Source: Escherichia coli
GTDB lineage: Bacteria > Pseudomonadota > Gammaproteobacteria > Enterobacterales > Enterobacteriaceae
NCBI RefSeq assembly: GCF_013122565.1
Contig: NZ_CP053258.1
Strand: one strand, 5' to 3'
Length of the DNA stretch: 64,000 bases
This document shows, piece by piece, positions 265 to 52,313 of the stretch (position 1 is its first letter; each line of letters starts with the position of its first letter). The notes under the pieces were generated by a model. That model worked only from the letters and a program-made list of their open reading frames with translations, made no database searches and was not told the DNA's origin. Made by a program: the position numbers and the translations under genes.

Positions 265-1047
265 ATGTTGGAATCAAGCAAAGTTCCCGCCCTGACACGG
301 GCTATTGATATTCTCAATTTGATTGCCCGCATTGGCCCCTGTAATGCTGCGACGATCATTGACACATTGGGGATCCCTAAAAGCACGACCTATTTGCTGC
401 TTAATGAACTCAGGCGTCAGCGTTTTCTTAGCCTTGATCACCAGGAAAATTTTTGTTTGTGGACCAGGCTGGTGGAGCTTTCCGGTCATGCGTTAAGCAA
501 GATGGATCTCCGGGAACTGGCTCGACCGCGTTTGACGCAACTGATGGATACCACCGGGCTGTTATGTCACCTGGGGATTATTGATAACGGCAGCGCTTAT
601 TACATTTTAAAAGTGGAGTCATCAGCCACTATCAGCGTGCGTTCCCATGAAGGAAAAAGCCTTTCGCTTTATCGCTCCGGAATAGGTAAATGCCTGCTTG
701 CCTGGCAACCTGCAGCGGTACAGCAAAGTATTATCGAAGGGCTGGTCTGGGAGCAGACGACACCCACAACGATTACTCATCCACAGCAACTTCACGAAGA
801 ACTGGCGCGTATTCGCCGTCAGGGCTGGAGCTATGACAACGGCGAAGATTACGCCGATGTCCGTTGTGTCGCTGCGCCGGTGTTTAACGCCAATAACGAG
901 CTTACCGCTGCGATCTCGGTGGTCGGTACCCGCTTACAAATCAATGAAGAATACCGTGATTATCTGGCGGGCAAGGCCATTGCCTGCGCCAGGGATATTT
1001 CACGTCTGTTGGGATGGAAAAGTCCCTTTGACTTACAAGCCTCATAA
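265..1047 (+). CDS. rhmR: IclR-family transcriptional regulator of the L-rhamnonate operon
   Basis: 260-aa ORF with N-terminal IclR-type HTH; GGAG SD 6 nt upstream of ATG; directly precedes rhmD-rhmT-rhmA as K-12 yfaX does. Confidence 0.85.
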
Positions 1048-1061
1048 CAATGGAGAACATC

Positions 1062-2267: not shown

Positions 2268-2323
2268 TCACTCCGGGCGTTGCTGTGAGAACGGTAATGC
2301 CCACATATTCTAAGGAGCTTTTT

Positions 2324-3613
2324 ATGAGCACCGCTTTGCTTGACGCCGTGGTGAAGAAAAACCGTGCGCGTTTAATTCCGTTTATGTTGGCGCTGTATGT
2401 GCTGGCGTTTCTCGACCGTTCGAATATTGGTTTTGCCAAACAGACCTACCAGATTGATACCGGGCTGAGTAATGAAGCTTATGCGCTGGGAGCAGGCATT
2501 TTCTTTGTGGTATACGCGTTTCTGGGGGTTCCGGCGAATCTTTTGATGCGAAAACTGGGGGCCAGAACCTGGATTGGTACGACAACACTGCTGTGGGGAT
2601 TTCTTTCGGCAGCCATGGCATGGGCCGATACTGAAGCGAAATTTCTGATTGTTCGCACTCTGCTTGGTGCTGCGGAGGCTGGGTTTTTCCCTGGTATGAT
2701 TTATCTCACCTCGCAATGGTTTCCGCAGAGTAATCGCGCCAGCATTATGGGGCTGTTCTATATGGGCGCACCGCTGGCGTTAACACTGGGATCACCGCTT
2801 TCTGGCGCGCTGCTGGAGATGCATGGATTTATGGGGCATCCCGGCTGGTTCTGGATGTTTGTGATTGAAGGATTGTTGGCAGTCGGCGCTGGGGTATTCA
2901 CATTCTTTTGGCTTGATGACACACCGGAGCAGGCACGTTTTCTGAGTAAACAAGAAAAAAAGTTGCTTATCAATCAACTGGCAAGTGAAGAACAACAGAA
3001 AGTGACTTCCCGAATGAGCGATGCGCTGCGTAATGGGCGAGTCTGGCAACTGGCGATTATCTACCTGACCATTCAGGTGGCGGTTTACGGATTAATTTTC
3101 TTCTTGCCGACCCAGGTTGCTGCATTGCTGGGGACAAAAGTGGGCTTTACGGCGTCGGTGGTCACCGCCATTCCGTGGGTTGCTGCCTTATTTGGGACCT
3201 GGCTTATTCCGCGCTATTCCGATAAAACCGGCGAACGGCGTAATGTCGCAGCGCTGACATTACTGGCGGCGGGCATTGGTATTGGTCTGTCCGGGCTGCT
3301 TTCTCCAGTAATGGCGATCGTAGCGCTGTGTGTTGCAGCCATCGGGTTTATTGCCGTGCAGCCGGTGTTCTGGACGATGCCGACACAACTGCTTTCCGGT
3401 ACGGCGCTGGCTGCGGGGATTGGTTTTGTAAACCTGTTTGGTGCAGTGGGCGGGTTTATTGCCCCGATCCTGCGCGTGAAAGCAGAAACGTTATTTGCCA
3501 GCGATGCGGCGGGATTACTGACGCTGGCAGCGGTGGCGGTCATCGGTTCGCTGATTATTTTCACTCTGCGTGTATATCGTACTGTTGCGCAGACCGATGT
3601 GGCACATCATTAA
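2324..3613 (+). CDS. rhmT: MFS transporter, probable L-rhamnonate importer
   Basis: Polytopic MFS-like protein; ORF track starts at GTG 2285, but ATG 2324 has a strong AAGGAG SD 7 nt upstream, giving 429 aa. Confidence 0.85.
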
Positions 3614-15573: not shown

Positions 15574-15620
15574 TTGTAGGCCAGATAAAACGCATAAGCG
15601 CCGCATCTGGCACTACAACC
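15574..15620. repeat. REP palindromic unit
   Basis: gtaggccagataaaacgcataagcgccgcatctggcactac between inaA and yfaE. Confidence 0.6.
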
Positions 15621-23853: not shown

Positions 23854-23935
23854 CCGGATGCGGCGTAAACGCCTTATCTGGCCTACGGAGAGCATTTGTA
23901 GGCCTGATAAGACGCGGCAAGCGTCGCATCAGGCA
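23854..23935. repeat. BIME: two inverted REP units between yfaL and ubiG
   Basis: gccggatgcggcgtaaacgccttatctggcctac and gtaggcctgataagacgcggcaagcgtcgcatcaggc. Confidence 0.7.
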
Positions 23936-27602: not shown

Positions 27603-34449
<6,847 letters not shown>

Positions 34450-36099
34450 GTGAACTGGCGCAGAATCGTCTGGCTATTGGCGTTGGTTACTCAGCCAACG
34501 CTTGCGGAGGAGACGCCGTTACAACTGGCGCTGCGGGGCGCGCAGCACGATCAACTGTATCGGCTGTCGTCATCAGGCGTGACCAAAGTCTCGGCATTAC
34601 CTGACACGCTCACCACGCCGTTAGGGAGTTTGTGGAAACTGTATGTTTACGCCTGGCTGGAGGATACCCATCAACCGGAGCAGCCCTACCAGTGTCGCGG
34701 AAACTCCCCGGAAGAGGTTTATTGTTGTCAGGCTGGGGAGAGCATAACGCGCGATACCGCGCTGGTACGTTCCTGTGGGCTCTATTTTGCGCCGCAGCGG
34801 TTGCATATTGGCGCAGATGTGTGGGGGCAATACTGGCAACAGCGTCAGGCACCTGCGTGGTTAGCGTCTCTTACTACGCTGAAGCCAGAAACCTCGGTAA
34901 CGGTTAAATCGCTGCTTGATTCATTAGCGACGTTACCTGCGCAAAACAAAGCTCAGGAAGTCTTACTGGATGTGGTGCTGGACGAGGCGAAAATCGGTGT
35001 CGCATCCATGCTCGGTAGTCGGGTACGGGTGAAAACCTGGAGCTGGTTTGCCGATGATAAACAGGAAATCCGTCAGGGTGGTTTTGCTGGCTGGTTAACC
35101 GATGGTACACCGCTGTGGGTTACTGGCAGTGGCACCAGCAAAACGGTACTAACCCGTTATGCGACGGTGCTTAATCGGGTTTTGCCAGTGCCGACGCAGG
35201 TTGCCAGTGGGCAATGTGTAGAGGTGGAGCTGTTTGCCCGCTATCCGCTGAAGAAAATCACAGCGGAAAAGAGTACGACGGCAGTAAAACCCGGCGTACT
35301 TAATGGGCGCTATCGTGTGACATTTGCCAATGGTAACCACATTACGTTTGTCAGCCACGGTGAGACGACCTTACTGAGCGAAAAGGGCAAACTGAAATTG
35401 CAGTCGCATCTCGATCGTGAAGAGTATGTTGCCAGAGTTCTGGATCGCGAGGCGAAAAGTACGCCACCTGAGGCAGCGAAAGCCATGACCGTGGCGATAC
35501 GCACTTTTTTACAGCAAAACGCCAATCGGGAAGGCGATTGCCTGACCATCCCTGACAGCAGCGCCACGCAGCGTGTTTCGGCTTCGCCAGCGACCACGGG
35601 GGCGCGAACGATGACCGCCTGGACGCAGGATCTCATCTATGCGGGCGATCCGGTTCATTATCACGGCAGTCGCGCTAGCGAAGGGACGCTTTCCTGGCGG
35701 CAAGCCACGGCCCAGGCGGGGCAGGGAGAGCGTTACGACCAGATACTCGCGTTTGCTTATCCCGACAACAGCCTTAGCCGCTGGGGAGCGCCACGCTCAA
35801 CCTGCCAGTTATTACCCAAAGCGAAAGCCTGGCTGGCGAAAAAAATGCCGCAGTGGCGGCGTATATTACAAGGCGAGACAGGGTACAACGAACCAGACGT
35901 GTTTGCGGTCTGTCGTTTAGTCTCAGGTTTCCCCTATACCGATCGGCAGCAGAAACGGCTGTTTATTCGTAACTTCTTTACGCTTCAGGATCGGCTGGAT
36001 TTAACCCATGAGTATCTGCACCTGGCCTTTGATGGTTATCCCACCGGGCTTGATGAGAACTATATCGAAACGCTGACCCGACAATTATTAATGGACTAA
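34450..36099 (+). CDS. yfaQ: DUF2300-family exported protein
   Basis: 549 aa; GTG start immediately after yfaS TAA stop; signal peptide. Confidence 0.75.
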   Translation: MNWRRIVWLLALVTQPTLAEETPLQLALRGAQHDQLYRLSSSGVTKVSALPDTLTTPLGSLWKLYVYAWLEDTHQPEQPYQCRGNSPEEVYCCQAGESITRDTALVRSCGLYFAPQRLHIGADVWGQYWQQRQAPAWLASLTTLKPETSVTVKSLLDSLATLPAQNKAQEVLLDVVLDEAKIGVASMLGSRVRVKTWSWFADDKQEIRQGGFAGWLTDGTPLWVTGSGTSKTVLTRYATVLNRVLPVPTQVASGQCVEVELFARYPLKKITAEKSTTAVKPGVLNGRYRVTFANGNHITFVSHGETTLLSEKGKLKLQSHLDREEYVARVLDREAKSTPPEAAKAMTVAIRTFLQQNANREGDCLTIPDSSATQRVSASPATTGARTMTAWTQDLIYAGDPVHYHGSRASEGTLSWRQATAQAGQGERYDQILAFAYPDNSLSRWGAPRSTCQLLPKAKAWLAKKMPQWRRILQGETGYNEPDVFAVCRLVSGFPYTDRQQKRLFIRNFFTLQDRLDLTHEYLHLAFDGYPTGLDENYIETLTRQLLMD

Positions 36100-36103
36100 T
36101 GCT

Positions 36104-36880
36104 ATGCGAAAGATTTTTCTTCCGTTGTTACTGGTGGCGCTTTCGCCTGTCGCTCACAGTGAAGGTGTGCAGGAAGTCGAGATTGATGCACCGCTCTCTG
36201 GCTGGCATCCGGCAGAGGGCGAAGATGCCAGTTTTTCACAATCGATCAATTACCCGGCGTCGTCCGTCAACATGGCAGATGATCAAAATATCTCAGCGCA
36301 GATCCGCGGCAAAATAAAAAATTATGCTGCGGCGGGTAAGGTTCAGCAGGGCCGGCTGGTGATCAACGGTGCCAGTATGCCGCAGAGAATTGAATCCGAT
36401 GGTTCATTTGCACGCCCTTATATTTTCACTGAAGGCAGCAACAGCGTGCAGGTCATCAGCCCGGATGGGCAAAGCCGACAAAAAATGCAGTTTTACTCAA
36501 CGCCGGGTACAGGAACGATTCGTGCACGTTTACGGCTGGTTCTCTCGTGGGATACGGACAATACCGATCTCGATCTCCATGTTGTCACGCCCGATGGCGA
36601 ACACGCCTGGTACGGTAACACCGTGCTGAAAAACAGTGGTGCACTGGATATGGATGTCACGACGGGGTACGGACCCGAGATTTTCGCCATGCCAGCACCA
36701 GTTCACGGGCGCTATCAGGTGTATATCAACTACTATGGTGGGCGCAGCGAAACGGAATTAACCACCGCCCAACTGACGCTGATCACCGATGAAGGATCGG
36801 TCAATGAGAAACAGGAAACATTTATTGTACCGATGCGTAATGCTGGCGAGCTGACGCTGGTGAAAAGTTTTGACTGGTGA
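36104..36880 (+). CDS. yfaP: DUF2135-family exported protein
   Basis: 258 aa; ATG 4 nt after yfaQ stop; signal peptide. Confidence 0.8.
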   Translation: MRKIFLPLLLVALSPVAHSEGVQEVEIDAPLSGWHPAEGEDASFSQSINYPASSVNMADDQNISAQIRGKIKNYAAAGKVQQGRLVINGASMPQRIESDGSFARPYIFTEGSNSVQVISPDGQSRQKMQFYSTPGTGTIRARLRLVLSWDTDNTDLDLHVVTPDGEHAWYGNTVLKNSGALDMDVTTGYGPEIFAMPAPVHGRYQVYINYYGGRSETELTTAQLTLITDEGSVNEKQETFIVPMRNAGELTLVKSFDW

Positions 36881-36934
36881 TCCATCCCTTCACACAACCT
36901 GGCGCTCTCTTTTTTCAGATAAGACTGCTGGGCG

Positions 36935-36978
36935 ATCTGCCGACGCCAGGATATAACCATTAACAAGCGTCGGCAGAT
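36935..36978. other. Perfect 12-bp inverted repeat with 20-nt loop at the yfaP-rcsC junction
   Basis: atctgccgacgc ... gcgtcggcagat. Confidence 0.6.
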
Positions 36979-37151
36979 TGGTCATTTCTTATTCGTACTG
37001 AGAACTGTCCATTTACTCTGGCTTTCCTGGTTAAGGCAATGGTTTCCAAGCGATACGCATTATTGCAATGGTGACAGAACATTGCGGTAACACGCTTTTA
37101 CCGCTACCTTAACCACACTCCATCGGTCACCTGAGGCGGAGCTTCGCCCCT

Positions 37152-40001
37152 TTGAAATACCTTGCTTCTTTTCGTACAACCCTGAAAGCCTCGCGCTACA
37201 TGTTCAGAGCATTGGCGTTAGTGCTCTGGCTGTTGATTGCTTTTTCATCCGTTTTTTACATCGTTAATGCGTTACATCAGCGAGAATCGGAAATTCGTCA
37301 GGAATTTAATCTGAGTTCCGATCAGGCTCAGCGCTTTATTCAACGCACCTCTGATGTGATGAAAGAGCTGAAGTACATCGCTGAAAATCGCTTATCGGTA
37401 GAAAACGGTGTGCTTTCCCCGCGTGGACGAGAAACGCAGGCAGATGTGCCTGCGTTTGAACCGCTGTTTGCCGACTCCGATTGTTCCGCAATGAGTAACA
37501 CCTGGCGAGGTTCTCTGGAGTCATTGGCGTGGTTTATGCGCTACTGGCGCGATAATTTTTCTGCGGCTTACGATCTCAACCGGGTATTTTTAATCGGCAG
37601 CGATAACCTCTGCATGGCCAATTTCGGTCTGCGTGATATGCCAGTGGAACGCGATACCGCGTTGAAAGCTTTGCATGAACGCATCAATAAATATCGAAAT
37701 GCACCACAAGATGATAGCGGCAGTAACCTCTACTGGATCAGCGAAGGTCCGCGCCCTGGCGTCGGGTATTTTTACGCGTTGACGCCAGTTTATCTGGCGA
37801 ACCGGTTGCAGGCGCTTTTGGGTGTCGAGCAAACCATCCGGATGGAGAACTTTTTCTTACCGGGTACGTTGCCGATGGGGGTTACCATTCTTGATGAAAA
37901 TGGTCATACCCTGATTTCGCTTACCGGACCAGAAAGCAAAATTAAGGGCGATCCTCGCTGGATGCAGGAACGCTCCTGGTTTGGCTATACGGAAGGGTTC
38001 CGGGAGCTGGTGCTGAAGAAAAATCTGCCACCCTCATCGCTAAGCATCGTGTATTCGGTGCCGGTTGATAAGGTGCTGGAACGCATTCGCATGTTGATCC
38101 TTAACGCAATTTTGCTGAATGTGCTTGCCGGAGCTGCATTGTTTACTCTCGCGCGGATGTACGAGCGACGTATTTTCATTCCGGCGGAAAGCGACGCCCT
38201 GCGACTGGAAGAACATGAGCAGTTCAATCGCAAGATTGTCGCCTCCGCGCCAGTGGGTATCTGCATTTTGCGTACCGCTGATGGCGTCAATATTTTAAGT
38301 AACGAACTGGCGCATACCTATCTCAATATGCTTACGCATGAGGACCGCCAACGACTGACGCAAATTATCTGTGGGCAGCAGGTCAATTTTGTTGATGTCC
38401 TGACCAGCAACAATACCAATCTGCAAATCAGCTTCGTCCATTCGCGCTATCGTAATGAAAACGTGGCCATTTGTGTGCTGGTGGATGTTTCTTCGCGCGT
38501 GAAGATGGAAGAGTCGTTGCAGGAGATGGCACAAGCAGCGGAACAGGCGAGCCAGTCAAAATCGATGTTCCTTGCCACCGTCAGTCATGAGCTGCGAACG
38601 CCGCTGTATGGCATTATCGGTAACCTGGATCTTTTGCAAACCAAAGAGTTACCGAAAGGCGTCGATCGTCTGGTGACGGCAATGAACAACTCTTCCAGCC
38701 TGTTGTTGAAAATTATCAGCGATATTCTCGATTTCTCGAAGATTGAATCGGAACAGTTGAAGATCGAACCGCGTGAGTTTTCACCGCGTGAAGTGATGAA
38801 CCACATCACCGCCAACTATTTACCGCTGGTGGTACGCAAGCAGTTAGGCTTGTACTGCTTTATTGAACCGGATGTGCCAGTGGCCTTAAATGGCGACCCG
38901 ATGCGTTTACAGCAGGTCATCTCCAACCTGTTGAGTAACGCCATAAAATTCACCGATACCGGCTGTATAGTTTTGCATGTCCGCGCTGATGGCGATTATC
39001 TCTCTATCCGTGTTCGCGATACCGGCGTGGGGATCCCGGCGAAAGAAGTGGTGCGCTTGTTTGATCCCTTCTTCCAGGTCGGAACGGGCGTACAGCGAAA
39101 CTTCCAGGGGACCGGTCTGGGTCTGGCGATTTGTGAAAAACTGATCAGCATGATGGACGGCGACATCTCGGTAGATTCAGAACCGGGAATGGGCAGCCAG
39201 TTTACCGTGCGTATTCCGTTGTACGGCGCTCAGTACCCGCAGAAAAAAGGCGTGGAAGGGTTGAGTGGTAAACGCTGCTGGCTGGCGGTCCGCAATGCGT
39301 CACTCTGTCAGTTCCTGGAAACCAGTTTGCAGCGCAGCGGCATCGTCGTAACAACATACGAAGGGCAGGAACCGACTCCCGAAGATGTGTTAATCACTGA
39401 CGAGGTAGTGAGTAAAAAATGGCAGGGCAGAGCGGTAGTGACCTTCTGTCGTCGACATATTGGTATTCCGCTGGAGAAAGCGCCAGGGGAGTGGGTACAC
39501 AGTGTGGCTGCTCCGCATGAGCTACCGGCATTGTTGGCGCGTATTTATTTGATCGAGATGGAGAGCGACGATCCTGCTAACGCTCTGCCGTCGACGGACA
39601 AAGCGGTCAGCGATAATGACGATATGATGTTTCTGGTCGTGGATGATCATCCGATTAACCGACGTCTGCTGGCAGATCAGTTGGGATCGTTGGGCTATCA
39701 ATGTAAAACCGCGAATGATGGCGTCGATGCGCTTAATGTACTTAGCAAGAATCATATTGATATCGTGCTTAGCGACGTCAACATGCCAAATATGGATGGT
39801 TACCGCTTGACGCAACGCATTCGTCAGTTGGGACTGACGTTGCCGGTAATCGGAGTAACTGCTAATGCGTTGGCTGAAGAGAAGCAGCGGTGTCTGGAGT
39901 CCGGTATGGACAGCTGCCTGTCGAAGCCGGTAACGCTGGATGTGATAAAACAGACGCTGACGGTATATGCCGAGAGGGTCAGGAAATCGCGGGAATCGTA
40001 G
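37152..40001 (+). CDS. rcsC: Rcs phosphorelay hybrid sensor histidine kinase
   Basis: 949 aa; HisKA H-box (SHELRTPL), HATPase and C-terminal receiver domain; apparent TTG start. Confidence 0.92.
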   Translation: MKYLASFRTTLKASRYMFRALALVLWLLIAFSSVFYIVNALHQRESEIRQEFNLSSDQAQRFIQRTSDVMKELKYIAENRLSVENGVLSPRGRETQADVPAFEPLFADSDCSAMSNTWRGSLESLAWFMRYWRDNFSAAYDLNRVFLIGSDNLCMANFGLRDMPVERDTALKALHERINKYRNAPQDDSGSNLYWISEGPRPGVGYFYALTPVYLANRLQALLGVEQTIRMENFFLPGTLPMGVTILDENGHTLISLTGPESKIKGDPRWMQERSWFGYTEGFRELVLKKNLPPSSLSIVYSVPVDKVLERIRMLILNAILLNVLAGAALFTLARMYERRIFIPAESDALRLEEHEQFNRKIVASAPVGICILRTADGVNILSNELAHTYLNMLTHEDRQRLTQIICGQQVNFVDVLTSNNTNLQISFVHSRYRNENVAICVLVDVSSRVKMEESLQEMAQAAEQASQSKSMFLATVSHELRTPLYGIIGNLDLLQTKELPKGVDRLVTAMNNSSSLLLKIISDILDFSKIESEQLKIEPREFSPREVMNHITANYLPLVVRKQLGLYCFIEPDVPVALNGDPMRLQQVISNLLSNAIKFTDTGCIVLHVRADGDYLSIRVRDTGVGIPAKEVVRLFDPFFQVGTGVQRNFQGTGLGLAICEKLISMMDGDISVDSEPGMGSQFTVRIPLYGAQYPQKKGVEGLSGKRCWLAVRNASLCQFLETSLQRSGIVVTTYEGQEPTPEDVLITDEVVSKKWQGRAVVTFCRRHIGIPLEKAPGEWVHSVAAPHELPALLARIYLIEMESDDPANALPSTDKAVSDNDDMMFLVVDDHPINRRLLADQLGSLGYQCKTANDGVDALNVLSKNHIDIVLSDVNMPNMDGYRLTQRIRQLGLTLPVIGVTANALAEEKQRCLESGMDSCLSKPVTLDVIKQTLTVYAERVRKSRES

Positions 40002-40200
40002 GACGGATAAGGTGTTTATGCCGCATCTGGCATTCAGTGCAAATGCCAGATGCGACGCTGACGCGTCTTATCTGGCCTACTTTAATGTAATCTGTTGAAA
40101 TAATGGGAATCGTAGGACGGATAAGGCGTTTACGCCGCATCCGGCAATCGGTGCAAATGCCAGATAAGACACTAACTAGTCTTATCTGGCCTACATCTGG
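39991..40200. repeat. Tandem duplication (period 114 bp) of a REP-containing unit
   Basis: gggaatcgtaggacggataagg occurs at 39991 and 40105, each followed by REP palindromes; the first copy includes the last 11 nt of rcsC. Confidence 0.7.
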
Positions 40201-40211
40201 CCTACAGATGA

Positions 40212-40862
40212 TTAGTCTTTATCTGCCGGACTTAAGGTCACAGAAGAGAGATAATTCAGCAGGGCGATATCGTTCTCGACACCCAGCTTCATCATCGCAG
40301 ATTTCTTCTGGCTACTGATGGTTTTAATACTGCGGTTCAGCTTTTTAGCGATCTCGGTCACCAGGAAGCCTTCCGCAAACAGGCGCAGAACTTCACTCTC
40401 TTTTGGCGAGAGACGCTTGTCACCGTAACCACCAGCACTGATTTTTTCCAACAGGCGAGAAACGCTTTCCGGGGTAAATTTCTTCCCTTTCTGCAGCGCG
40501 GCGAGAGCTTTCGGCAGATCGGTCGGTGCACCTTGTTTCAGCACGATCCCTTCAATATCCAGATCCAATACCGCACTAAGAATCGCCGGGTTGTTGTTCA
40601 TAGTCAGAACAATGATCGACAGGCTTGGGAAATGGCGCTTGATGTACTTGATTAAGGTAATACCATCGCCGTACTTATCGCCAGGCATGGAGAGATCGGT
40701 AATCAACACATGCGCATCCAGTTTCGGCAGGTTGTTGATCAGTGCTGTAGAGTCTTCAAATTCGCCGACAACATTCACCCACTCAATTTGCTCAAGTGAT
40801 TTGCGAATACCGAACAAGACTATCGGATGGTCATCGGCAATAATTACGTTCATATTGTTCAT
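40212..40862 (-). CDS. rcsB: Rcs response regulator (LuxR/FixJ family)
   Basis: 216 aa from ATG 40862 (MNNMNVIIADDHPIV); receiver domain plus C-terminal HTH. Confidence 0.95.
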   Translation of the reverse strand: MNNMNVIIADDHPIVLFGIRKSLEQIEWVNVVGEFEDSTALINNLPKLDAHVLITDLSMPGDKYGDGITLIKYIKRHFPSLSIIVLTMNNNPAILSAVLDLDIEGIVLKQGAPTDLPKALAALQKGKKFTPESVSRLLEKISAGGYGDKRLSPKESEVLRLFAEGFLVTEIAKKLNRSIKTISSQKKSAMMKLGVENDIALLNYLSSVTLSPADKD

Positions 40863-40878
40863 GTAATAGGCTACCTTG

Positions 40879-43551
40879 CTACAGCAAGCTCTTGACATAA
40901 CTGTCAATGTCGCTGATGTATTTTTCTATTCCTGGAACATCCTTCTCACGAATCAGATGTTCCAGCGTTTCACATAACTGCTTGCCGGGTACCAGATTTA
41001 GCATGGCAAATACGCCTTTAAGACGATGAGCCGTTTGGGCTAACGCAGCAAAGTCACTGGTTGCTGCTTCAGTATACAGCCTCTTAACATCATCCGGTAC
41101 TGTGTCTACAAAGAGCGCATAATAGCCGCTGGCATGGAGTTGCGCATTTTCATCTCCGCCCAGAGGCGATTCTGTCACCTCTTCCTGCGCCAGTTGCACT
41201 TCAATTAATTGTAAGACCGCTTCCTGCATAGCGTTGCTCATATTGAAGTTGACGCACAATTGACCAGGCCCAATTTCCCGTACGCCAGACTCATCATCGC
41301 TTAAAAGCAAGCCAGAGGCAGTAAGATTAGACGGATTATCCGTTAAAAAGATATCATAATCTTGACTAATTAATCTTTCATCGGGTGTGATACAGGTTGC
41401 ACCCCAATTTTCTAACTGGCGAGTGACAATATTCCGAATTTCTGCCGAAGTAACATCCACCATTACGCAGACATCATCCAGTAAACGCTCTTCTTCCTCT
41501 TCAACTTCCGGGTCAGCTGCGAGCATTTTGATATGCACAGAGTAGCGTGTACCAAGCCCATCCCGCGTTTTGATGTTTAAATGACCGCCCAGTTTACGCG
41601 CCAGTTGATCGCTCAGCCAGAATGCCAGCGGGTCCGCCTTGCCATAGCGATCGTTTTGGGTCTGGTTGATAAACGGGAAGTGCAAATTATCCATTTCATG
41701 AATACTTACGCCTTCTCCCGTGTCCAGAATGCGGAACGTCAGGCGGTCTTCGGAGGACTCATCCTGATCAACCTCAAGGGTGATTTTTCCCAATTGCGTT
41801 GAGGTCACGGCATATTGCATCAGTAGCAGCAAAATACGTCGTAAGGCATCGCGATCGCCGCGGCGCATATCGTGTGCTTTCAGATGATTGTTAATCAGCA
41901 GTTGCAGACCTTTACGCTTGATGGCAGGCAACACTGAAGGCACAACTTCATCAATTAAATCCTGCACGGAGAACAGCACCGTCTCACTTTTCCAGCTATC
42001 GTCCGCAAGCATGTTCGCTAACTGTATTTCATCGACCAGCCGCACCAGCACATCTGCCTGATTCGCCAGTTGTTTGCTTTCCGGGGCGTTGAGTTTAGCC
42101 GCGCTCTCCGCCAGGGACTGTGCGGGTTCTTTCAGCGCATCGCCAATGTTTTTCATAAAGGTCATCCGCCCCTGCTGGTTTTTCTCATACAGACGCTGCG
42201 CCTGCTTGAGTTTCTTGTTTACCAGCACTTCGCGATCCTGATCGCGAATAATGAAAATTTGTGTGCGCGGCGCAACCTGGCTGCGGAACATGCGGATCTC
42301 ATACAGCTCGTTATTGATCGTCGCCTGAATAATCCCCTGATGCTGTTCCGCCATGGTGGTGATGTTTTGCAGATTCAAATGCGGCAGCAAATGATCGGCA
42401 ATTTTGTTACTTATGACAGTGCGGTTCGATTCCTGATCGTGAACCAGCAGGCCGAGCGGCAGCAGTGAGACTATCTCTTCATTAATTGCCCGTAAAATGC
42501 GCAATTCGTTATTGACCGCCGTGTTGGGTAGACTTTCTGTACTGCGACTGGAGAAATGGCGGAATGTGGTATAGCCAAATAACGCCAGCGCCAGCAAACC
42601 GATGTTCAGCAGCAGTGGCAGCAGAATGTTTTGCAACGTATCCAGCAATAAGGTGCCATAAGGAACCTGCCAGACCAGGCGCATATCGGTAGAGTTGAGT
42701 GCCGAGGAGATTTCAATCTTCGTACTGTTAAAGTGGATACTGACGCTATCCGTCCCTTCTTTCTCATTATCATTGTTTCCCGTTGCCGTCGCGTCTGGCT
42801 CAAGGCGGAAACTGTCCAGCGGCATACCCGGTGGGATCAAATCATTAATCGGCAGATCAAAAGCCACGACCGTTGCCAGATGTCCCGGCTGGTTGAACGT
42901 GGTACGCAAGGTAAAGTAATGACCGTTCTGCCAGGCCAGGCGGCGCATGTTAGAAAAACTTTCGCGTTCATCGAGGGCGTTGGCCTGTTGCAACATCTCT
43001 GCACGACGTGAATCAACAATGTCACTGACGGTCGATTCTTTAAATCCGGAGGTGAGATCTTTGAGGGGCAGGGTTGAGATCAGCACCAGACTGTTATCCT
43101 GACCATTCAGGTAATACATCGACCACGGTACATTTTCTGCGCCCCACAATGTATCCAGATAAGTGGACATCCGCTGAGTCATCTCAAGCGTTGAGTTGTC
43201 GTGAGAGCCAAAGATTAACGCTTCCGTTTTGCGACGCGGTTTTTCCAGATAGTAGACATCCTGTTTCAGGCGCGTCTCTTGTAAACCTTCGCCGGAGGAG
43301 GGGGAGGTCGTCGCGGCAATGTTGTCGTAGATCTGCCAGGTCACGTAACGCCAGGTATCGACGCGCTTTTGGATTGCGTGGGTAATGTCGACAATCTGGT
43401 AACTTTTATCTTTCAGCCAGGCGTTAACGGCGCTTTGTACCATTACACCCATCGTCACCAGTAACACAATGATCAACAGTAAAAAGAAGCGGGTAATGCT
43501 CCCCGGTAGGAGTGAAAAGCGGGTCGTGGCCGTTGTCTCTTTCTGACGCAT
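40879..43551 (-). CDS. rcsD: Rcs phosphotransfer protein (HPt)
   Basis: 890 aa; two N-terminal TM segments, degenerate kinase-like core, C-terminal HPt. Confidence 0.92.
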   Translation of the reverse strand: MRQKETTATTRFSLLPGSITRFFLLLIIVLLVTMGVMVQSAVNAWLKDKSYQIVDITHAIQKRVDTWRYVTWQIYDNIAATTSPSSGEGLQETRLKQDVYYLEKPRRKTEALIFGSHDNSTLEMTQRMSTYLDTLWGAENVPWSMYYLNGQDNSLVLISTLPLKDLTSGFKESTVSDIVDSRRAEMLQQANALDERESFSNMRRLAWQNGHYFTLRTTFNQPGHLATVVAFDLPINDLIPPGMPLDSFRLEPDATATGNNDNEKEGTDSVSIHFNSTKIEISSALNSTDMRLVWQVPYGTLLLDTLQNILLPLLLNIGLLALALFGYTTFRHFSSRSTESLPNTAVNNELRILRAINEEIVSLLPLGLLVHDQESNRTVISNKIADHLLPHLNLQNITTMAEQHQGIIQATINNELYEIRMFRSQVAPRTQIFIIRDQDREVLVNKKLKQAQRLYEKNQQGRMTFMKNIGDALKEPAQSLAESAAKLNAPESKQLANQADVLVRLVDEIQLANMLADDSWKSETVLFSVQDLIDEVVPSVLPAIKRKGLQLLINNHLKAHDMRRGDRDALRRILLLLMQYAVTSTQLGKITLEVDQDESSEDRLTFRILDTGEGVSIHEMDNLHFPFINQTQNDRYGKADPLAFWLSDQLARKLGGHLNIKTRDGLGTRYSVHIKMLAADPEVEEEEERLLDDVCVMVDVTSAEIRNIVTRQLENWGATCITPDERLISQDYDIFLTDNPSNLTASGLLLSDDESGVREIGPGQLCVNFNMSNAMQEAVLQLIEVQLAQEEVTESPLGGDENAQLHASGYYALFVDTVPDDVKRLYTEAATSDFAALAQTAHRLKGVFAMLNLVPGKQLCETLEHLIREKDVPGIEKYISDIDSYVKSLL

Positions 43552-43863
43552 TCGTGTTTATGACCTGTTAAAACTTCGCGAAGTGATAGGGCAGTATAAA
43601 GGGTACAGTGTGAAATTCCAGACTCTTACCTGATTGATGATTCTCTATTCTCCCGTGATATTTAACATCCTGTATGGGGGGAAATAGATGTACAAGCGCC
43701 ATTTTGCTGTACAAATAACCTACGAAAAGCCCAACGAAATAAATTGCAAATAAACGAAGATTGCTGGAAATTATGCTGATGTTAATTATTTGTGAAATAG
43801 TTAACAAGCGTTATAGTTTTTCTGTGGTAGCACAGAATAATGAAAAGTGTGTAAAGAAGGGTA

Positions 43864-43956
43864 AAAAAAAACCGGATGCGAGGCATCCGGTTGAAATAGG
43901 GGTAAACAGACATTCAGAAATGAATGACGGTAATAAATAAAGTTAATGATGATAGC
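43864..43956 (-). ncRNA. micF: MicF antisense sRNA
   Basis: Minus strand reads gctatcatcattaactttatttattaccgtcattcatttctgaatgtctgtttacccc...aaccggatgcctcgcatccggtttttttt, the MicF sequence with its terminator hairpin, divergent from ompC. Confidence 0.85.
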
Positions 43957-44111
43957 GGGAGTTATTCTAGTTGCGAGTGAAGGTTTTGTTTTGACATTCA
44001 GTGCTGTCAAATACTTAAGAATAAGTTATTGATTTTAACCTTGAATTATTATTGCTTGATGTTAGGTGCTTATTTCGCCATTCCACAATAATCTTAAAAA
44101 GTTCCCTTGAA

Positions 44112-44171
44112 TTTACATTTTGAAACATCTATAGCGATAAATGAAACATCTTAAAAGTTTTAGTATCATAT
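44112..44171 (+). promoter_or_regulatory. OmpR-binding region (C1-C3) of the ompC promoter
   Basis: tttacattttgaaacatcta / tagcgataaatgaaacatct / taaaagttttagtatcatat, matching the ompC upstream repeats as I recall. Confidence 0.65.
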
Positions 44172-44275
44172 TCGTGTTGGATTATTCTGCATTTTTGGGG
44201 AGAATGGACTTGCCGACTGATTAATGAGGGTTAATCAGTATGCAGTGGCATAAAAAAGCAAATAAAGGCATATAA

Positions 44276-45394
<1,119 letters not shown>

Positions 45395-45412
45395 TCTCGA
45401 TTGATATCGAAC

Positions 45413-45436
45413 AAAGGGCCTGCGGGCCCTTTTTTC
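45413..45436 (+). terminator. Rho-independent terminator of ompC
   Basis: aaagggcc-tgcg-ggcccttttttt. Confidence 0.8.
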
Positions 45437-45505
45437 ATTGTTTTCAGCGTACAAACACAGTTTTTTGGTGTACTCTTGCGACCGTTCGCATGAGGATAAT
45501 CACGT

Positions 45506-46561
45506 ATGGAAATAAGCTTTACCCGCGTGGCACTGCTGGCTGCCGCGCTCTTCTTTGTTGGTTGCGATCAAAAACCACAACCCGCCAAAACCCACGCTAC
45601 TGAAGTTACCGTTCTTGAAGGCAAAACTATGGGTACCTTCTGGCGTGCCAGCATCCCGGGCATTGACGCCAAACGCAGCGCCGAACTTAAAGAAAAGATT
45701 CAGACCCAGCTGGACGCCGACGATCAGCTGCTTTCGACCTATAAAAAAGATTCCGCGCTGATGCGCTTTAACGACTCGCAAAGTTTGTCGCCGTGGCCGG
45801 TAAGTGAAGCGATGGCCGATATCGTCACCACCTCGCTGCGCATTGGCGCAAGGACCGATGGTGCGATGGATATAACCGTCGGGCCGCTGGTGAATCTGTG
45901 GGGCTTTGGCCCGGAACAACAGCCGGTTCAAATTCCGAGCCAGGAACAGATCGATGCGATGAAAGCCAAAACTGGTTTACAGCACCTGACGGTCATTAAT
46001 CAGTCGCATCAGCAATATCTGCAAAAAGACCTACCGGATTTATATGTCGATCTCTCCACCGTCGGTGAAGGTTATGCGGCGGATCACCTGGCACGCTTGA
46101 TGGAGCAGGAAGGAATTTCACGTTATCTGGTGTCAGTTGGTGGTGCTCTGGATAGCCGTGGTATGAACGGTGAAGGCCAGCCGTGGCGGGTAGCGATTCA
46201 AAAACCAACCGATAAAGAAAACGCGGTTCAGGCTGTGGTGGATATCAACGGTCATGGGATTAGCACCTCTGGCAGCTACCGTAACTATTACGAACTGGAC
46301 GGCAAACGTCTTTCCCATGTTATCGATCCGCAAACCGGGCGTCCCATCGAACACAATCTGGTATCCGTGACGGTGATTGCTCCGACGGCGCTGGAAGCCG
46401 ATGCCTGGGATACTGGCTTGATGGTACTCGGGCCGGAGAAAGCCAAAGAGGTTGTTCGCCGGGAAGGGCTGGCGGTTTATATGATCACCAAAGAAGGTGA
46501 TAGCTTTAAAACCTGGATGTCACCACAGTTTAAAAGCTTCCTGGTCAGCGAAAAAAATTAA
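45506..46561 (+). CDS. apbE: FAD:protein FMN transferase (lipoprotein)
   Basis: 351 aa; lipobox FFVGC near N-terminus. Confidence 0.9.
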   Translation: MEISFTRVALLAAALFFVGCDQKPQPAKTHATEVTVLEGKTMGTFWRASIPGIDAKRSAELKEKIQTQLDADDQLLSTYKKDSALMRFNDSQSLSPWPVSEAMADIVTTSLRIGARTDGAMDITVGPLVNLWGFGPEQQPVQIPSQEQIDAMKAKTGLQHLTVINQSHQQYLQKDLPDLYVDLSTVGEGYAADHLARLMEQEGISRYLVSVGGALDSRGMNGEGQPWRVAIQKPTDKENAVQAVVDINGHGISTSGSYRNYYELDGKRLSHVIDPQTGRPIEHNLVSVTVIAPTALEADAWDTGLMVLGPEKAKEVVRREGLAVYMITKEGDSFKTWMSPQFKSFLVSEKN

Positions 46562-46568
46562 TGCGCAA
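46551..46568 (+). promoter_or_regulatory. Ada-box-like element of the ada promoter
   Basis: aaaaaaattaatgcgcaa (AAAT...GCAA) about 70 bp upstream of ada, overlapping the apbE stop. Confidence 0.5.
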
Positions 46569-46634
46569 GATTGTTGGTTTTTGCGTGATGGTGACCGGGC
46601 AGACTAAAGGCTATCCTTAACCAGGGAGCTGATT

Positions 46635-47699
46635 ATGAAAAACGCCACATGCTTAACTGACGATCAACGCTGGCAATCTGTCTTAGCCCGCGACCCGAAT
46701 GCCGACGGCGAATTCGTTTTCGCCGTGCGCACCACGGGTATCTTTTGCCGTCCGTCTTGCCGCGCCAGACATGCCTTGCGGGAAAACGTCTCCTTCTACG
46801 CAAATGCCAGCGAGGCACTCGCCGCTGGCTTTCGCCCCTGCAAACGTTGTCAGCCAGACAAAGCCAATCCCCGGCAACATCGCCTTGATAAAATTACCCA
46901 CGCCTGCCGACTTCTGGAACAGGAAACGCATGTAACGCTGGAAACCTTAGCCGACCAGGTGGCGATGAGCCCGTTCCATCTGCATCGGTTGTTTAAAGCG
47001 ACTACCGGAATGACGCCTAAAGCCTGGCAACAGGCCTGGCGCGCTCGCCGTTTGCGCGAATCGCTGGCGAAAGGGGAGAGCGTGACGACGTCTATTCTTA
47101 ACGCCGGATTCCCCGACATCAGCAGTTACTACCGCAAAGCTGACGAAACGCTGGGCATGACGGCTAAACAATTCCGTCACGGTGGCGAAAATCTGGCGGT
47201 GCGTTACGCGCTGGCTGATTGTGAGCTGGGTCGTTGCCTGGTGGCAGAAAGCGAGCGGGGGATTTGCGCGATATTGCTGGGCGATGATGACGCGACATTA
47301 ATCAGCGAGTTGCAGCAGATGTTTCCCGCTGCCGACAGCGCGCCTGCCGATCTGACGTTTCAGCAACATGTGCGTGACGTGATCGCCAGCCTCAATCAAC
47401 GCGATACGCCGCTGACGTTACCGCTGGACATTCGCGGCACTGCTTTTCAGCAACAAGTCTGGCAGGCACTGCGCACGATACCTTGCGGTGAAACCGTCAG
47501 TTATCAGCAACTGGCGAACGCCATCGGCAAACCGAAAGCGGTACGGGCCGTTGCCAGCGCCTGTGCCGCCAACAAGCTGGCTATCGTAATACCCTGTCAT
47601 CGAGTGGTCCGTGGTGATGGCACTCTTTCTGGTTACCGCTGGGGCGTGTCGCGTAAAGCACAACTGCTGCGCCGCGAAGCTGAAAATGAGGAGAGGTAA
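46635..47699 (+). CDS. ada: Bifunctional transcriptional activator / O6-methylguanine-DNA methyltransferase
   Basis: 354 aa; N-terminal Cys cluster (FCRPSCRAR), AraC-type HTH, C-terminal PCHRV active site. Confidence 0.95.
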   Translation: MKNATCLTDDQRWQSVLARDPNADGEFVFAVRTTGIFCRPSCRARHALRENVSFYANASEALAAGFRPCKRCQPDKANPRQHRLDKITHACRLLEQETHVTLETLADQVAMSPFHLHRLFKATTGMTPKAWQQAWRARRLRESLAKGESVTTSILNAGFPDISSYYRKADETLGMTAKQFRHGGENLAVRYALADCELGRCLVAESERGICAILLGDDDATLISELQQMFPAADSAPADLTFQQHVRDVIASLNQRDTPLTLPLDIRGTAFQQQVWQALRTIPCGETVSYQQLANAIGKPKAVRAVASACAANKLAIVIPCHRVVRGDGTLSGYRWGVSRKAQLLRREAENEER

Positions 47700-48349
47700 T
47701 GTTGGATCTGTTTGCCGATGCTGAACCGTGGCAAGAGCCTCTGGCGGCTGGTGCGGTAATTTTACGGCGTTTTGCTTTTAACGCTGCGGAGCAACTAATC
47801 CGCGATATTAATGACGTTGCCAGCCAGTCGCCGTTTCGCCAGATGGTCACTCCAGGCGGATATACCATGTCGGTGGCGATGACCAACTGCGGGCATCTGG
47901 GCTGGACGACCCATCGGCAAGGTTATCTCTATTCGCCCATTGATCCGCAAACAAATAAACCGTGGCCCGCCATGCCACAAAGCTTTCATGATTTATGCCA
48001 ACGTGCGGCTACGGCGGCGGGCTATCCAGATTTCCAGCCAGATGCTTGTCTTATCAACCGCTACGCTCCTGGCGCGAAACTGTCGCTGCATCAGGATAAA
48101 GACGAACCGGATCTGCGCGCGCCAATTGTTTCTGTTTCTCTGGGCTTACCCGCGATTTTTCAATTTGGCGGCCTGAAACGAAATGATCCGCTAAAAAGAT
48201 TGTTGTTGGAACATGGCGATGTGGTGGTATGGGGCGGTGAATCGCGGCTGTTTTATCACGGCATTCAACCGCTGAAAGCGGGGTTTCATCCACTCACCGG
48301 CGACTGCCGCTACAACCTGACATTCCGGCAGGCAGGTAAAAAAGAATAA
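47699..48349 (+). CDS. alkB: Fe(II)/2-oxoglutarate-dependent DNA/RNA demethylase
   Basis: 216 aa; HxD...H motif (HQDKDE); start overlaps ada stop by 1 nt. Confidence 0.95.
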   Translation: MLDLFADAEPWQEPLAAGAVILRRFAFNAAEQLIRDINDVASQSPFRQMVTPGGYTMSVAMTNCGHLGWTTHRQGYLYSPIDPQTNKPWPAMPQSFHDLCQRAATAAGYPDFQPDACLINRYAPGAKLSLHQDKDEPDLRAPIVSVSLGLPAIFQFGGLKRNDPLKRLLLEHGDVVVWGGESRLFYHGIQPLKAGFHPLTGDCRYNLTFRQAGKKE

Positions 48350-48424
48350 AAATAAGAATTATTATTGCTGTGCGCGCGAAGATGTTTAAACTGCGGGCTG
48401 TAATTCATTGTCCGGGTTTTCTGC

Positions 48425-50068
48425 ATGGAACTTCTTGTACTTGTCTGGCGGCAGTATCGCTGGCCATTTATCAGTGTGATGGCGCTAAGCCTCGCCAGTG
48501 CGGCTTTAGGCATTGGCTTAATTGCTTTTATCAATCAGCGCCTTATCGAAACGGCGGATACCAGTCTGCTGGTGTTGCCGGAGTTTCTGGGATTATTGCT
48601 GCTGTTGATGGCCGTCACTCTCGGATCGCAACTGGCGCTCACCACTTTGGGGCATCACTTCGTTTACCGACTGCGTAGTGAATTTATCAAGCGGATTCTG
48701 GATACCCACGTCGAACGCATTGAACAACTCGGTAGCGCCTCGTTGTTGGCGGGGTTAACCAGCGATGTGCGCAATATCACCATTGCTTTTGTGCGTCTGC
48801 CGGAACTGGTGCAGGGGATCATTCTCACTATCGGTTCCGCGGCGTATCTGTGGATGCTGTCGGGCAAAATGTTGCTGGTAACGGCTATCTGGATGGCGAT
48901 CACCATCTGGGGTGGTTTTGTACTGGTGGCGCGGGTGTACAAACATATGGCGACCCTGCGTGAAACCGAAGACAAGCTGTACACGGATTTTCAAACCGTA
49001 CTCGAAGGGCGCAAAGAGCTGACTCTGAACCGGGAACGCGCCGAGTATGTGTTTAACAACCTCTACATTCCTGATGCGCAAGAGTATCGCCATCATATTA
49101 TCCGCGCAGACACCTTCCATCTTAGTGCCGTGAACTGGTCAAACATCATGATGCTGGGCGCTATCGGCCTGGTGTTCTGGATGGCGAACAGTCTCGGTTG
49201 GGCTGATACCAACGTTGCTGCGACCTATTCGTTGACGCTGTTATTCCTGCGTACGCCGCTGCTTTCGGCGGTTGGCGCATTGCCGACGCTGCTGACGGCG
49301 CAGGTGGCGTTTAACAAGCTGAACAAATTCGCGCTCGCGCCTTTCAAAGCGGAATTTCCGCGTCCGCAGGCGTTTCCCAACTGGCAAACACTGGAATTGC
49401 GTAACGTGACGTTTAGCTATCAGGATAACGCGTTTTCCGTTGGGCCGATTAACCTCACCATCAAACGTGGCGAACTGCTGTTTCTGATTGGCGGCAACGG
49501 TAGCGGAAAATCGACGCTGGCGATGTTGTTGACGGGCTTGTATCAGCCGCAAAGCGGCGAAATCTTGCTGGATGGCAAACCTGTCAGCGGCGAACAACCG
49601 GAAGATTATCGCAAATTGTTTTCGGCAGTGTTTACCGATGTCTGGCTGTTTGATCAACTGCTGGGGCCGGAGGGGCAACCCGCTAACCCGCAACTGGTTG
49701 AGAAGTGGCTGGCGCAGCTGAAAATGGCTCATAAGCTTGAGTTAAGTAACGGGCGTATTGTTAACCTGAAGTTATCGAAAGGGCAGAAAAAACGCGTGGC
49801 GCTGTTGCTGGCGCTGGCAGAAGAACGCGATATTATCCTGCTGGATGAATGGGCGGCGGATCAGGACCCACACTTCCGTCGTGAGTTTTATCAGGTGTTG
49901 CTGCCGCTGATGCAGGAGATGGGTAAAACTATTTTCGCCATCAGTCATGATGATCATTACTTTATCCACGCCGACCGCCTGCTGGAAATGCGCAACGGGC
50001 AACTTAGCGAGCTGACGGGCGAAGAGCGCGATGCCGCTTCGCGTGATGCCGTTGCCCGGACGGCATAA
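48425..50068 (+). CDS. yojI: ABC exporter, fused TMD-NBD (microcin J25 efflux type)
   Basis: 547 aa; N-terminal TM domain; Walker [10 protein letters not shown]. Confidence 0.9.
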
Positions 50069-51974: not shown

Positions 51975-52313
51975 CTGATAAGACGCGCCAGCGTCGCATC
52001 AGGCAACCGGCTTGGGTGTTAGATGTCGGATGCGGCGTAACCGACTTATTCGACCTACGGGGTGGAGCACTTCACAGCGGTGTAGGCCTGATAAGACGCG
52101 TCAGCGTCGCATCAGGCAACCGGCTCGGACGTTGGATGTCGGATGCGGCGTAACCGCCTTATCCGACCTACGGGGTGGAGCACTTCACAGCGGTGTAGGC
52201 CTGATAACACGCGTCAGCGTCGCATCAGGCAACCGGCTCGGGCGTTAGATGTCGGATGCGGCGTGACCGCTTTATCCAACCTACGGGGTGCCGCACTTCA
52301 CGGCAGTTTAGCG
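51975..52313. repeat. BIME array: three tandem ~113-bp REP-containing units
   Basis: Units start at 51975, 52088 and 52201; the third overlaps the eco stop codon. Confidence 0.8.

Follow-up and report, generated by a model that had tools for sequence, protein, structure and literature searches.

What is the repeated segment that separates rcsC from rcsB in this Escherichia coli genome, how did it come to be there, and does it matter for the two genes whose ends it touches? The window, by which we mean the whole 64,000-nt stretch of DNA that was analysed, had been described in a first-pass annotation as carrying a 114-bp tandem duplication downstream of rcsC, in which each unit holds a REP pair and the first takes in the end of the coding sequence. 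The genes and the limits of the repeat were established using NCBIfam equivalogs, translation, a repeat search and pairwise alignment, as follows.

37152–40001, + strand: rcsC coding sequence (949 aa; RcsC equivalog NF008099, 1838 bits over residues 1–948)
39999–40001, + strand: rcsC stop codon TAG, from the translation
39983–40080: repeat copy 1 (98 nt), comprising the last rcsC codons, a y REP, an S linker and a z2 REP
40097–40194: repeat copy 2 (98 nt)
40212–40862, − strand: rcsB coding sequence (216 aa; RcsB equivalog NF008098, 467 bits)

The array does lie between convergent rcsC and rcsB, and it fills the gap between them, which is 210 bp here. The RcsB profile match spans residues 16–231 of a 231-aa open reading frame, with the TAA stop as the complement of 40212–40214. 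The two copies are identical at 84 of 98 positions (86%) and repeat with a start-to-start distance of 114, the spacing originally proposed; the 22-mer GGGAATCGTAGGACGGATAAGG on which that proposal was built occurs twice, at 39991–40012 and 40105–40126. Copy 1 contains the final rcsC codons AAA TCG CGG GAA TCG TAG (K-S-R-E-S-stop), such that the E-S-stop claimed for the first unit is present and the stop TAG sits within the conserved GTAG (39998–40001) of the first REP. An independent public assembly (Logan SRR11451224) agrees with the window at 180/180 positions, from unit 1 across the spacer into the beginning of unit 2. Four small open reading frames over the array (39890–40090 +, 39967–40098 +, 39979–40140 − and 40103–40318 +) were considered and rejected as spurious, being either inside REPs or antisense to rcsB.

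Within each unit, two REPs and the linker between them could be delimited.

39998–40032, + strand: y-type REP of unit 1, with a GTAGG motif, aligned to the first hairpin of naRNA4
40033–40044: head-to-head linker of unit 1, TTCAGTGCAAAT, unpaired between the hairpins in the Rfam alignment
40045–40080, − strand: z2-type REP of unit 1, with GTAG on the − strand, from the naRNA4 alignment
40112–40146, + strand: y-type REP of unit 2, with a GTAGG motif, from the naRNA4 alignment
40147–40158: head-to-head linker of unit 2, ATCGGTGCAAAT, from the Rfam alignment
40159–40194, − strand: z2-type REP of unit 2, an inverted repeat of 12 nt at 100% with a GTAGG motif, from the naRNA4 alignment

The Rfam model RF02564 (naRNA4), which describes a Z2+Y REP pair and has a gathering threshold of 59.5 bits, matches the + strand of the two unit cores at 66.7 and 66.2 bits over all 77 positions. 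Both inverted hairpins are aligned in each unit, in agreement with the REP pair originally noted, while the − strand scores of 50.6 and 43.3 bits are under threshold. The y and z2 types assigned to these REPs are presumably correct, the labels depending in part on the consensus sequences of the two types. In the array, GTAGG motifs of the + strand lie at 39998 and 40112 and those of the − strand at 40080 and 40194, and each of the four REPs has a GTAG/CTAC tetranucleotide at its outer end.

A GTAG tetranucleotide is conserved 5′ of the foot of each REP palindrome, and the BIME-2 class is defined by z2 and y REPs with a short linker, in tandem copies which are well conserved at each locus and vary in number among strains (PMC3333891). 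In the array, every unit has one y and one z2 REP in inverse orientation, aligned to naRNA4 over its full length, and both head-to-head linkers are 12 nt long and unpaired, as in the short S linker. The units are in tandem, 86% identical and conserved at the locus, and they occur as one-, two- and three-unit alleles among 5,426 genomes. Across all the genomes the tail-to-tail linker (32 nt) matches this locus only, with a cutoff as loose as E ≤ 10, which is consistent with the variable length and sequence of BIME-2 linkers (PMC3333891). On the strength of these sequence features, we class the rcsC–rcsB repeat as a BIME-2-type array of two units, each composed of a y REP, a short linker and an inverted z2 REP. 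Its 31-nt tail-to-tail linker differs from those of BIME-2 elements in general (Gilson/Bachellier classification, PMC3333891) in being locus-specific and partly derived from the 3′ end of a neighbouring gene.

The mismatch bubble of the REP stem is required for binding and cleavage by TnpA(REP). Unpaired model positions are kept in both y REPs and in the z2 REP of unit 1, whereas the bubble is absent from the z2 REP of unit 2 because its outer stem is fully paired as a perfect 12-bp palindrome (GCCAGATAAGAC/GTCTTATCTGGC).

The array is an already known kind of element and, by its position and composition, is the orthologue of the catalogued REP162 of E. coli K-12. In K-12 MG1655, REP162 occupies the same locus with four REPs in identical order and the same pseudo-rcsC tail; its 16-nt spacer is one base apart from that of the window, and the unit 1 z2 hairpin region is identical at 44/44 positions to a K-12 terminator entry discussed below. 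The window differs from REP162 in that the loop region of its unit 2 z2 REP reads CTAG and not CGCG, in compensating wobble changes in the unit 1 y REP, and in a microduplication at the rcsB-proximal end, which makes the gap 210 bp as opposed to 199 bp. The feature table of the curated K-12 record NC_000913.3 shows zero REP features across 45 kb and is uninformative. The microduplication is placed as follows.

40195–40205: second copy, ATCTGGCCTAC, of an 11-bp microduplication whose first copy is 40184–40194; an insertion when compared with each of the aligned E. coli alleles

The 11-bp duplication has zero full matches in the 5,426 E. coli genomes and zero exact matches in the metagenome collection, and the sole public contig with an identical RcsC stops short of its position. 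Only this microduplication is private to the window. It places the true z2 hairpin 11 nt farther from the rcsB stop, at about 21 nt instead of about 10 nt.

The array as a whole is much more widely distributed. Of the 5,426 complete E. coli genomes, 4,436 (about 82%) contain the junction between the units, which occurs at 4,471 places in all. It is missing from about 18%, and the examples inspected contain one unit; when the length of the rcsC–rcsB gap was compared across strains, as the first-pass annotation had suggested, the one-unit alleles inspected fell short by exactly 114 bp. Three units are present in at least 28 genomes. The allele shares are roughly 81% for two units, 18% for lack of the junction and under 1% for three or more. 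The two-unit state is the majority E. coli allele and is neither new nor strain-specific. Beyond E. coli, two full unit cores and a homologous spacer are found in E. albertii, where the units match each other at 73/77 positions and any E. coli unit at 65–71/77, and in another two Escherichia lineages both units are present but carry internal deletions.

This distribution refutes a recent, strain-specific tandem duplication creating a new 3′ UTR structure for rcsC. The copies are adjacent and have a non-REP flank in common, as such an event would predict, but they are only 86% identical, the same layout and spacer recur in about 82% of the 5,426 genomes, and other Escherichia species, E. albertii among them, have two units with a homologous spacer. 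We give a recent origin virtually no credence.

The junction between the units has the following parts.

40081–40096: 16-nt spacer, TTTAATGTAATCTGTT, restricted to alleles of at least two units and locus-specific across the 5,426 genomes
40097–40115: decayed copy of the rcsC 3′ end, GAAATAATGGGAATCGTAG against GAAATCGCGGGAATCGTAG, 16/19 identical

Alignment of the units had been set beforehand as the test of duplication, the opposing possibility being that the copies share the REP palindrome alone. The sharing exceeds the palindrome, since the 15 nt 5′ of the GTAG in unit 2 match the rcsC codons at 12/15 positions (P about 1e-5 in register). The sequence GGGAATCGTAGG has no other locus in the 64-kb window, while the REP core motif has 12 occurrences at five loci; together with the matched flank, this refutes sharing of the palindrome only. 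The K-S-R-E-S codons are also present in genera without REPs at the rcsC–rcsB locus, and the unit 2 flank is thus derived from the rcsC 3′ end rather than the reverse.

A different origin would be that a RAYT/TnpA(REP) transposase inserted the two REP pairs independently, with no segmental duplication. TnpA(REP) is thought to spread REPs, cleaves C/T sites (C|T) in inverted REPs and their linkers, and can recombine them in vitro, with possible amplification of BIMEs (PMC3333891). It also gains from the 16-nt spacer, for which a simple tandem duplication does not account (5–8/16 in register against the sequence after unit 2). However, an inserted REP pair would not carry the tail of the neighbouring gene, and unit 2 bears 15 nt of non-REP sequence matching the coding end of rcsC at 12/15, corresponding to codons found where there is no REP; moreover, the linker occurs at no other locus. 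We consider independent insertion improbable. Two other sources for the junction sequence were tried without support. Similarity of the spacer to the rcsB 3′ end, as expected of a duplication across both gene ends, is not significant (5–8/16 in register in six lineages, P = 0.09–0.76). The tail-to-tail linker does not behave as a dispersed BIME motif: the junction (60 nt) and the linker alone (32 nt, E ≤ 10) each match one locus only, about once per genome.

The decaying rcsC tail at the junction instead points to a tandem-copied segment that began within rcsC, and to growth of the array by local segmental duplication as opposed to fresh REP insertion. We propose that in an Escherichia ancestor a tandem copy was made of the segment that begins at rcsC codon −6 and takes in the first REP pair. 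Given the unexplained spacer, the original event may have been more complex than this, or may have involved TnpA(REP). As the mosaics and copy counts show, homologous exchange between the units has since cut some alleles to one unit, expanded others to three and left converted tracts. The one-unit alleles are chimeric, with their left part from unit 1 and their right part from unit 2, and in the verified three-unit allele of strain SCU-113 the middle unit is the reciprocal mosaic. Such mosaic units point to unequal recombination and exchange between units.

Other genera differ at the locus. REPs are arranged in another way in Salmonella and Citrobacter, and in Trabulsiella and Pseudocitrobacter the gaps are REP-free, 41–51 bp long and preceded by an RcsC ending ...RES. 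A formal terminator was found by scanning the Pseudocitrobacter gap; the Trabulsiella gap has none by the scan rule, though its sequence shows a G+C-rich hairpin. The REP hairpins would replace the plain hairpin present at this position in some REP-free genera, a hairpin that the scan counts as a terminator in Pseudocitrobacter at least.

Whichever strand is transcribed, the palindromes of the array are predicted to fold into stable hairpins: folding energies are −99 and −91 kcal/mol for the two strands, far better than shuffled controls (z = −7.4 and −7.6). These hairpins do not resemble intrinsic (Rho-independent) terminators, as the REPs of the array are without a T-tract. A search of 39500–40700 for a canonical hairpin followed by T residues gave one weak match only, a 6-bp stem at 40194–40210 on the + strand made by the 11-bp duplication, and a single weak match is also the number given by shuffled sequence. 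For K-12, a table reproduced in the Harris et al. preprint (Supplementary Table 16, rows 182 and 183) records the two z2 hairpins of REP162 among its bidirectional-terminator overlap regions, in log and/or stationary phase. At such a region, 3′ ends of transcripts from the two strands overlap around a single hairpin. The region in row 183 (2316942–2316985) corresponds to the unit 1 z2 REP at 40043–40086 of the window (44/44), and that in row 182 (2316832–2316874) to the unit 2 z2 REP at 40154–40196 (40/43). REPs in general have been assigned a dual role as terminators and stabilisers (preprint 10.64898/2026.03.23.713779); in that preprint they do not uniformly change mRNA half-life, and Rho dependence was undetectable for fragments of 2–4 hairpins. 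From the K-12 data and this general literature we infer a terminator or barrier function at the present locus. The suggestion in the first-pass annotation that the array influences termination or stability of both transcripts thus appears compatible with the external K-12 data. The hairpins would serve as tandem bidirectional terminators or barriers, forming the 3′ ends of the rcsC and rcsDB transcripts.

A second effect could be exerted on translation. A REP less than 16 nt downstream of a stop codon down-regulates translation, according to Liang, Rudd and Deutscher 2015 as relayed in PMC12306157. Both genes resemble the stop-proximal REPs of that account in the distance given there: it is 0 for rcsC, where the stop is within the GTAG, and on the rcsB transcript the first GTAG is 6 nt after the stop. 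With the first hairpin beginning at the rcsC stop and the last lying a few nucleotides past that of rcsB, the REPs may also dampen translation termination of RcsC and RcsB.

Alternatively, the array might act mainly as DNA, providing a site for gyrase or a nucleoid protein which relieves supercoiling between the convergent units, with the RNA hairpins secondary. Positive supercoils accumulate between convergent genes, where this array lies, and BIME-2 elements are reportedly high-affinity gyrase sites. About 60% of E. coli REPs are likewise located between convergent genes (preprint). Against this, REP325 had no effect on nucleoid compaction and no REP–REP contacts were seen (preprint), and the 3′ ends of K-12 transcripts coincide with the z2 hairpins. 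A primarily DNA-level role seems unlikely to us. The DNA-level and RNA-level roles are compatible and not mutually exclusive.

The Rfam matches raise one further possibility, namely that the units are stand-alone small RNAs of the naRNA4 type which organise the nucleoid with HU. Both units exceed the gathering threshold, yet the model is in effect a generic Y+Z2 REP pair, a third match in the window (52085–52168) scores higher than the units of the array, and a scan found no promoter-like site in the region. The description of naRNA4 as a processed 77-nt, HU-binding, nucleoid-condensing RNA is itself disputed by the 2026 preprint. REP325 (yjdM–yjdN), the naRNA4 locus and the model REP array, is built of the two-hairpin Y+Z2 unit that the present array matches in Rfam above threshold. 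It differs in having 12 hairpins between tandem genes of one operon, whereas the present array has four, between convergent genes, and abuts both stops. REP325 has been proposed as a terminator and mRNA stabiliser in a 3′ UTR (preprint 10.64898/2026.03.23.713779). For the array, a small RNA of this type is exceedingly improbable.

Taken as a whole, an orthologue of REP162 forming a BIME-2-type array, which arose by segmental copying in an Escherichia ancestor, was reshaped by exchange between units, and supplies hairpin terminators or barriers, is in our judgement very probably the correct explanation. The array is ordinary for Escherichia except for the decayed last codons of rcsC in its second copy. 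Its importance beyond careful annotation is small, as the tandem structure and strain-variable copy number of such elements have already been described; for annotation, REP-derived open reading frames in the rcsC–rcsB gap should not be recorded as genes. A broader pair of ideas, offered jointly as a long shot, is that BIME arrays can grow by segmental duplication which captures neighbouring coding sequence and not by REP transposition, and that the one-, two- and three-unit alleles and the 11-bp shift tune the stoichiometry of the Rcs phosphorelay. If true, the junction would be a fossil of an ancestral rcsC 3′ end, and the alleles would form a non-coding dial, working via the efficiency of termination and via a REP-dependent disturbance of translation termination. 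The natural allelic series offers a means of testing the proposed terminator/stabiliser and stop-proximal roles of REPs in a well-studied signalling system.

The first-pass annotation had described a 114-bp tandem duplication downstream of rcsC whose unit takes in the last codons of that gene, and we found both the observation and its interpretation to be correct. The 22-mer GGGAATCGTAGGACGGATAAGG is present at 39991 and again at 40105, and a repeat finder reports a 98-nt match between 39983-40080 (copy 1) and 40097-40194 (copy 2) at 86% identity (84/98) and a period of 114. Copy 1 holds the codons K-S-R-E-S-stop. The likeness between the copies is not confined to the REP palindrome: the 15 nt immediately 5' of GTAG match at 12/15 positions, for which the chance probability in register is ~1e-5. 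Whereas the window has 12 occurrences of the REP core motif, spread over five loci, it has no further occurrence of GGGAATCGTAGG. Over 180 nt, from unit 1 through the spacer into the beginning of unit 2, an independent public contig is identical. The array and its surroundings are laid out as follows.

37152-40001, + strand: rcsC (NCBIfam equivalog match)
39999-40001: rcsC stop codon TAG, within the conserved GTAG of the first REP
39998-40032: y REP of unit 1, GTAG on the + strand
40033-40044: linker of unit 1
40045-40080: inverted z2 REP of unit 1
40081-40096: 16-nt spacer
40097-40115: 19-nt copy of the rcsC end, GAAATAATGGGAATCGTAG (16/19 identity)
40112-40146: y REP of unit 2
40147-40158: linker of unit 2
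40159-40194: z2 REP of unit 2
40195-40205: extra 11-bp copy of ATCTGGCCTAC, then six bases to the rcsB stop codon
40212-40862, - strand: rcsB (NCBIfam equivalog match)
upstream of rcsB: rcsD (NCBIfam equivalog match)
43864-43957, - strand: MicF small RNA gene (Rfam RF00033, 116.8 bits), upstream of rcsD as in K-12

The unit cores (40001-40077 and 40115-40191) are both full-length matches to naRNA4, the Rfam model of the Y+Z2 REP pair (10.64898/2026.03.23.713779), scoring 66.7 and 66.2 bits where the threshold is 59.5, and the alignment places two hairpins in each unit with the 12-nt linker between them. This layout agrees with the published definition of BIME-2, in which z2 and y REPs are joined by a short linker, tandem copies are well conserved at each locus with variable linkers, and copy number varies from strain to strain (PMC3333891). 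In the z2 REP of unit 2 (40159-40190), a stem mismatch has been lost (GATGCGAC to GATAAGAC) to leave a perfect 12-bp palindrome. A y REP from which the mismatch has been removed is neither bound nor cleaved by the REP-associated transposase TnpA(REP) (PMC3333891); the z2 REP of unit 2 may therefore have ceased to be an enzyme substrate while forming a stronger hairpin. At the rcsB-proximal foot of the same REP lies an 11-bp tandem microduplication (ATCTGGCCTAC twice; 40184-40205) which has no full match among 5,426 complete E. coli genomes and no exact match in the metagenome collection. The sole contig with an identical RcsC stops short of this position. The microduplication may be genuine or may stem from an assembly error; a genuine one would put the true z2 hairpin 11 nt farther from the rcsB stop codon.

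A scan for RcsB with one genome per species returned 80 loci. In Trabulsiella and Pseudocitrobacter, the gaps are 41-51 bp long with a plain G+C-rich hairpin, and RcsC also terminates in ...RES, which makes the K-S-R-E-S codons ancestral coding sequence. This rules out a REP-associated motif as the source of the stretch heading unit 2 which, as judged by sequence comparison, is a copy of the rcsC end. In Salmonella and Citrobacter the REPs are arranged the opposite way (tail-to-tail), and the stop codon, TAA, is not part of the REP. Within Escherichia, a homologous spacer joins two full unit cores in E. albertii, two other lineages carry two units but with internal REP deletions, and a further lineage has only one unit. 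These comparisons argue that the two-unit state is older than the split between E. coli and E. albertii, and that one-unit alleles are secondary losses. In Enterobacteriaceae bacterium MGYG-HGUT-00110, the rcsC-rcsB gap is 324 bp long and contains three tandem repeats of ~98-100 bp, each appearing to hold a different REP type and a stretch resembling the rcsC 3' end (GGAAAGCGCGGGAGTCAG...); this would be an apparently separate case of a REP-containing unit copying a gene tail.

The 60-nt junction between units was found in 4,436 of the 5,426 complete E. coli genomes, as was the 32-nt linker alone, at 4,471 places in total (median one per genome, maximum three). With about one place per genome, the linker is therefore specific to the rcsC-rcsB locus, and ~82% of genomes therefore carry at least two units. 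The junction is absent from ~18% of the 5,426, and in the junction-less examples inspected the gap is 85 bp versus 199 bp, exactly 114 bp less; this shorter span was seen in 7/40 rows of an evenly spaced sample. Three-unit alleles also exist, with at least 28 genomes matching a synthetic three-unit query as a single colinear 414-bp piece and strain SCU-113, whose sequence was read directly, containing three units at a period of 114. Strain 88-3493 carries a variant with an 18-bp deletion inside unit 2.

Eleven diagnostic sites separating unit 1 from unit 2 in K-12 were scored across these alleles. One short allele (one unit, no junction) starts out as unit-1 type and becomes unit-2 type between positions 54 and 70, while a second is of unit-1 type along its whole length. 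The middle unit of the three-unit allele is the reciprocal of the short alleles, being unit-2-type at its left end and unit-1-type at its right, where the spacer follows, and in strain SEV4 the right half of unit 2 is unit-1-type. The E. albertii units match each other at 73/77 positions versus 65-71/77 to any E. coli unit. Patterns of this kind are what unequal crossing-over and gene conversion between direct repeats would be expected to leave. Under a simple tandem duplication, the 16 nt that follow unit 1 are expected to be similar to those that follow unit 2. They match at only 5-8/16 positions across six lineages (P = 0.09-0.76), and the array may have been founded by something more complex. 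One candidate agent is TnpA(REP), which cuts inverted REPs and linkers at C|T sites and, in vitro, joins them (PMC3333891).

The highest identity to the 30000-50000 region over 20 kb is just 98.2% among the 5,426 genomes and the exact RcsC protein is recorded in a single public sequencing run, so the source would seem to belong to a lineage that is close to E. coli and has rarely been sampled. The ato operon (atoSC-atoDAEB), located between rcsC and yfaP in K-12, is missing at 36880-37152, leaving 271 bp from the end of yfaP to rcsC; this arrangement appears common, because the 20-kb stretch is colinear in 4,532/5,426 genomes. Another four-REP cluster at 52045-52208 (naRNA4 match at 52085-52168, - strand, 75.3 bits) is probably orthologous, going by its position, to REP161 of K-12, which occupies the mqo-eco gap. 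At 23873-23911 there is a tail-to-tail REP pair whose distance to rcsC makes it a possible orthologue of REP163, and single REP-like motifs lie at 15576 and 58277.

Both strands of the rcsC-rcsB gap fold much more stably than shuffled controls do, at -99 and -91.2 kcal/mol (z = -7.4 and -7.6). The gap contains no canonical hairpin-plus-T terminator except one weak stem (40194-40210) made by the 11-bp duplication; a canonical terminator is present in the REP-free gap of Pseudocitrobacter. The K-12 counterpart of the array, REP162, contributes two regions to a list of REPs that coincide with bidirectional terminators mapped earlier between convergent genes: 2316832-2316874 (log and stationary) and 2316942-2316985 (stationary) (Supplementary Table 16 in 10.64898/2026.03.23.713779). 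The former is the z2 hairpin of unit 2 (window 40154-40196, 40/43) and the latter that of unit 1 (40043-40086, 44/44). The mapping behind this list is probably that of Ju et al. 2019. About 60% of REPs are situated between convergent genes, and REP325 partially terminates transcription and also stabilises mRNA (10.64898/2026.03.23.713779). From the folding, the terminator scan, the K-12 z2 terminator regions and the REP325 findings, we infer that the two units would serve as tandem bidirectional elements at which the rcsC and rcsDB transcripts acquire their 3' ends. An additional effect, on translation of rcsC or rcsB, is possible: according to the summary of Liang et al. 2015 in PMC12306157, REPs <16 nt from a stop codon down-regulate translation, and here the distance from the stop codon is 0 nt in rcsC, while in rcsB the first GTAG comes after 6 nt. 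The array itself is nothing out of the ordinary: a BIME-2-type REP array that had already been catalogued and that shows the usual polymorphism in copy number. The captured rcsC tail is a small curiosity concerning how the array grew.
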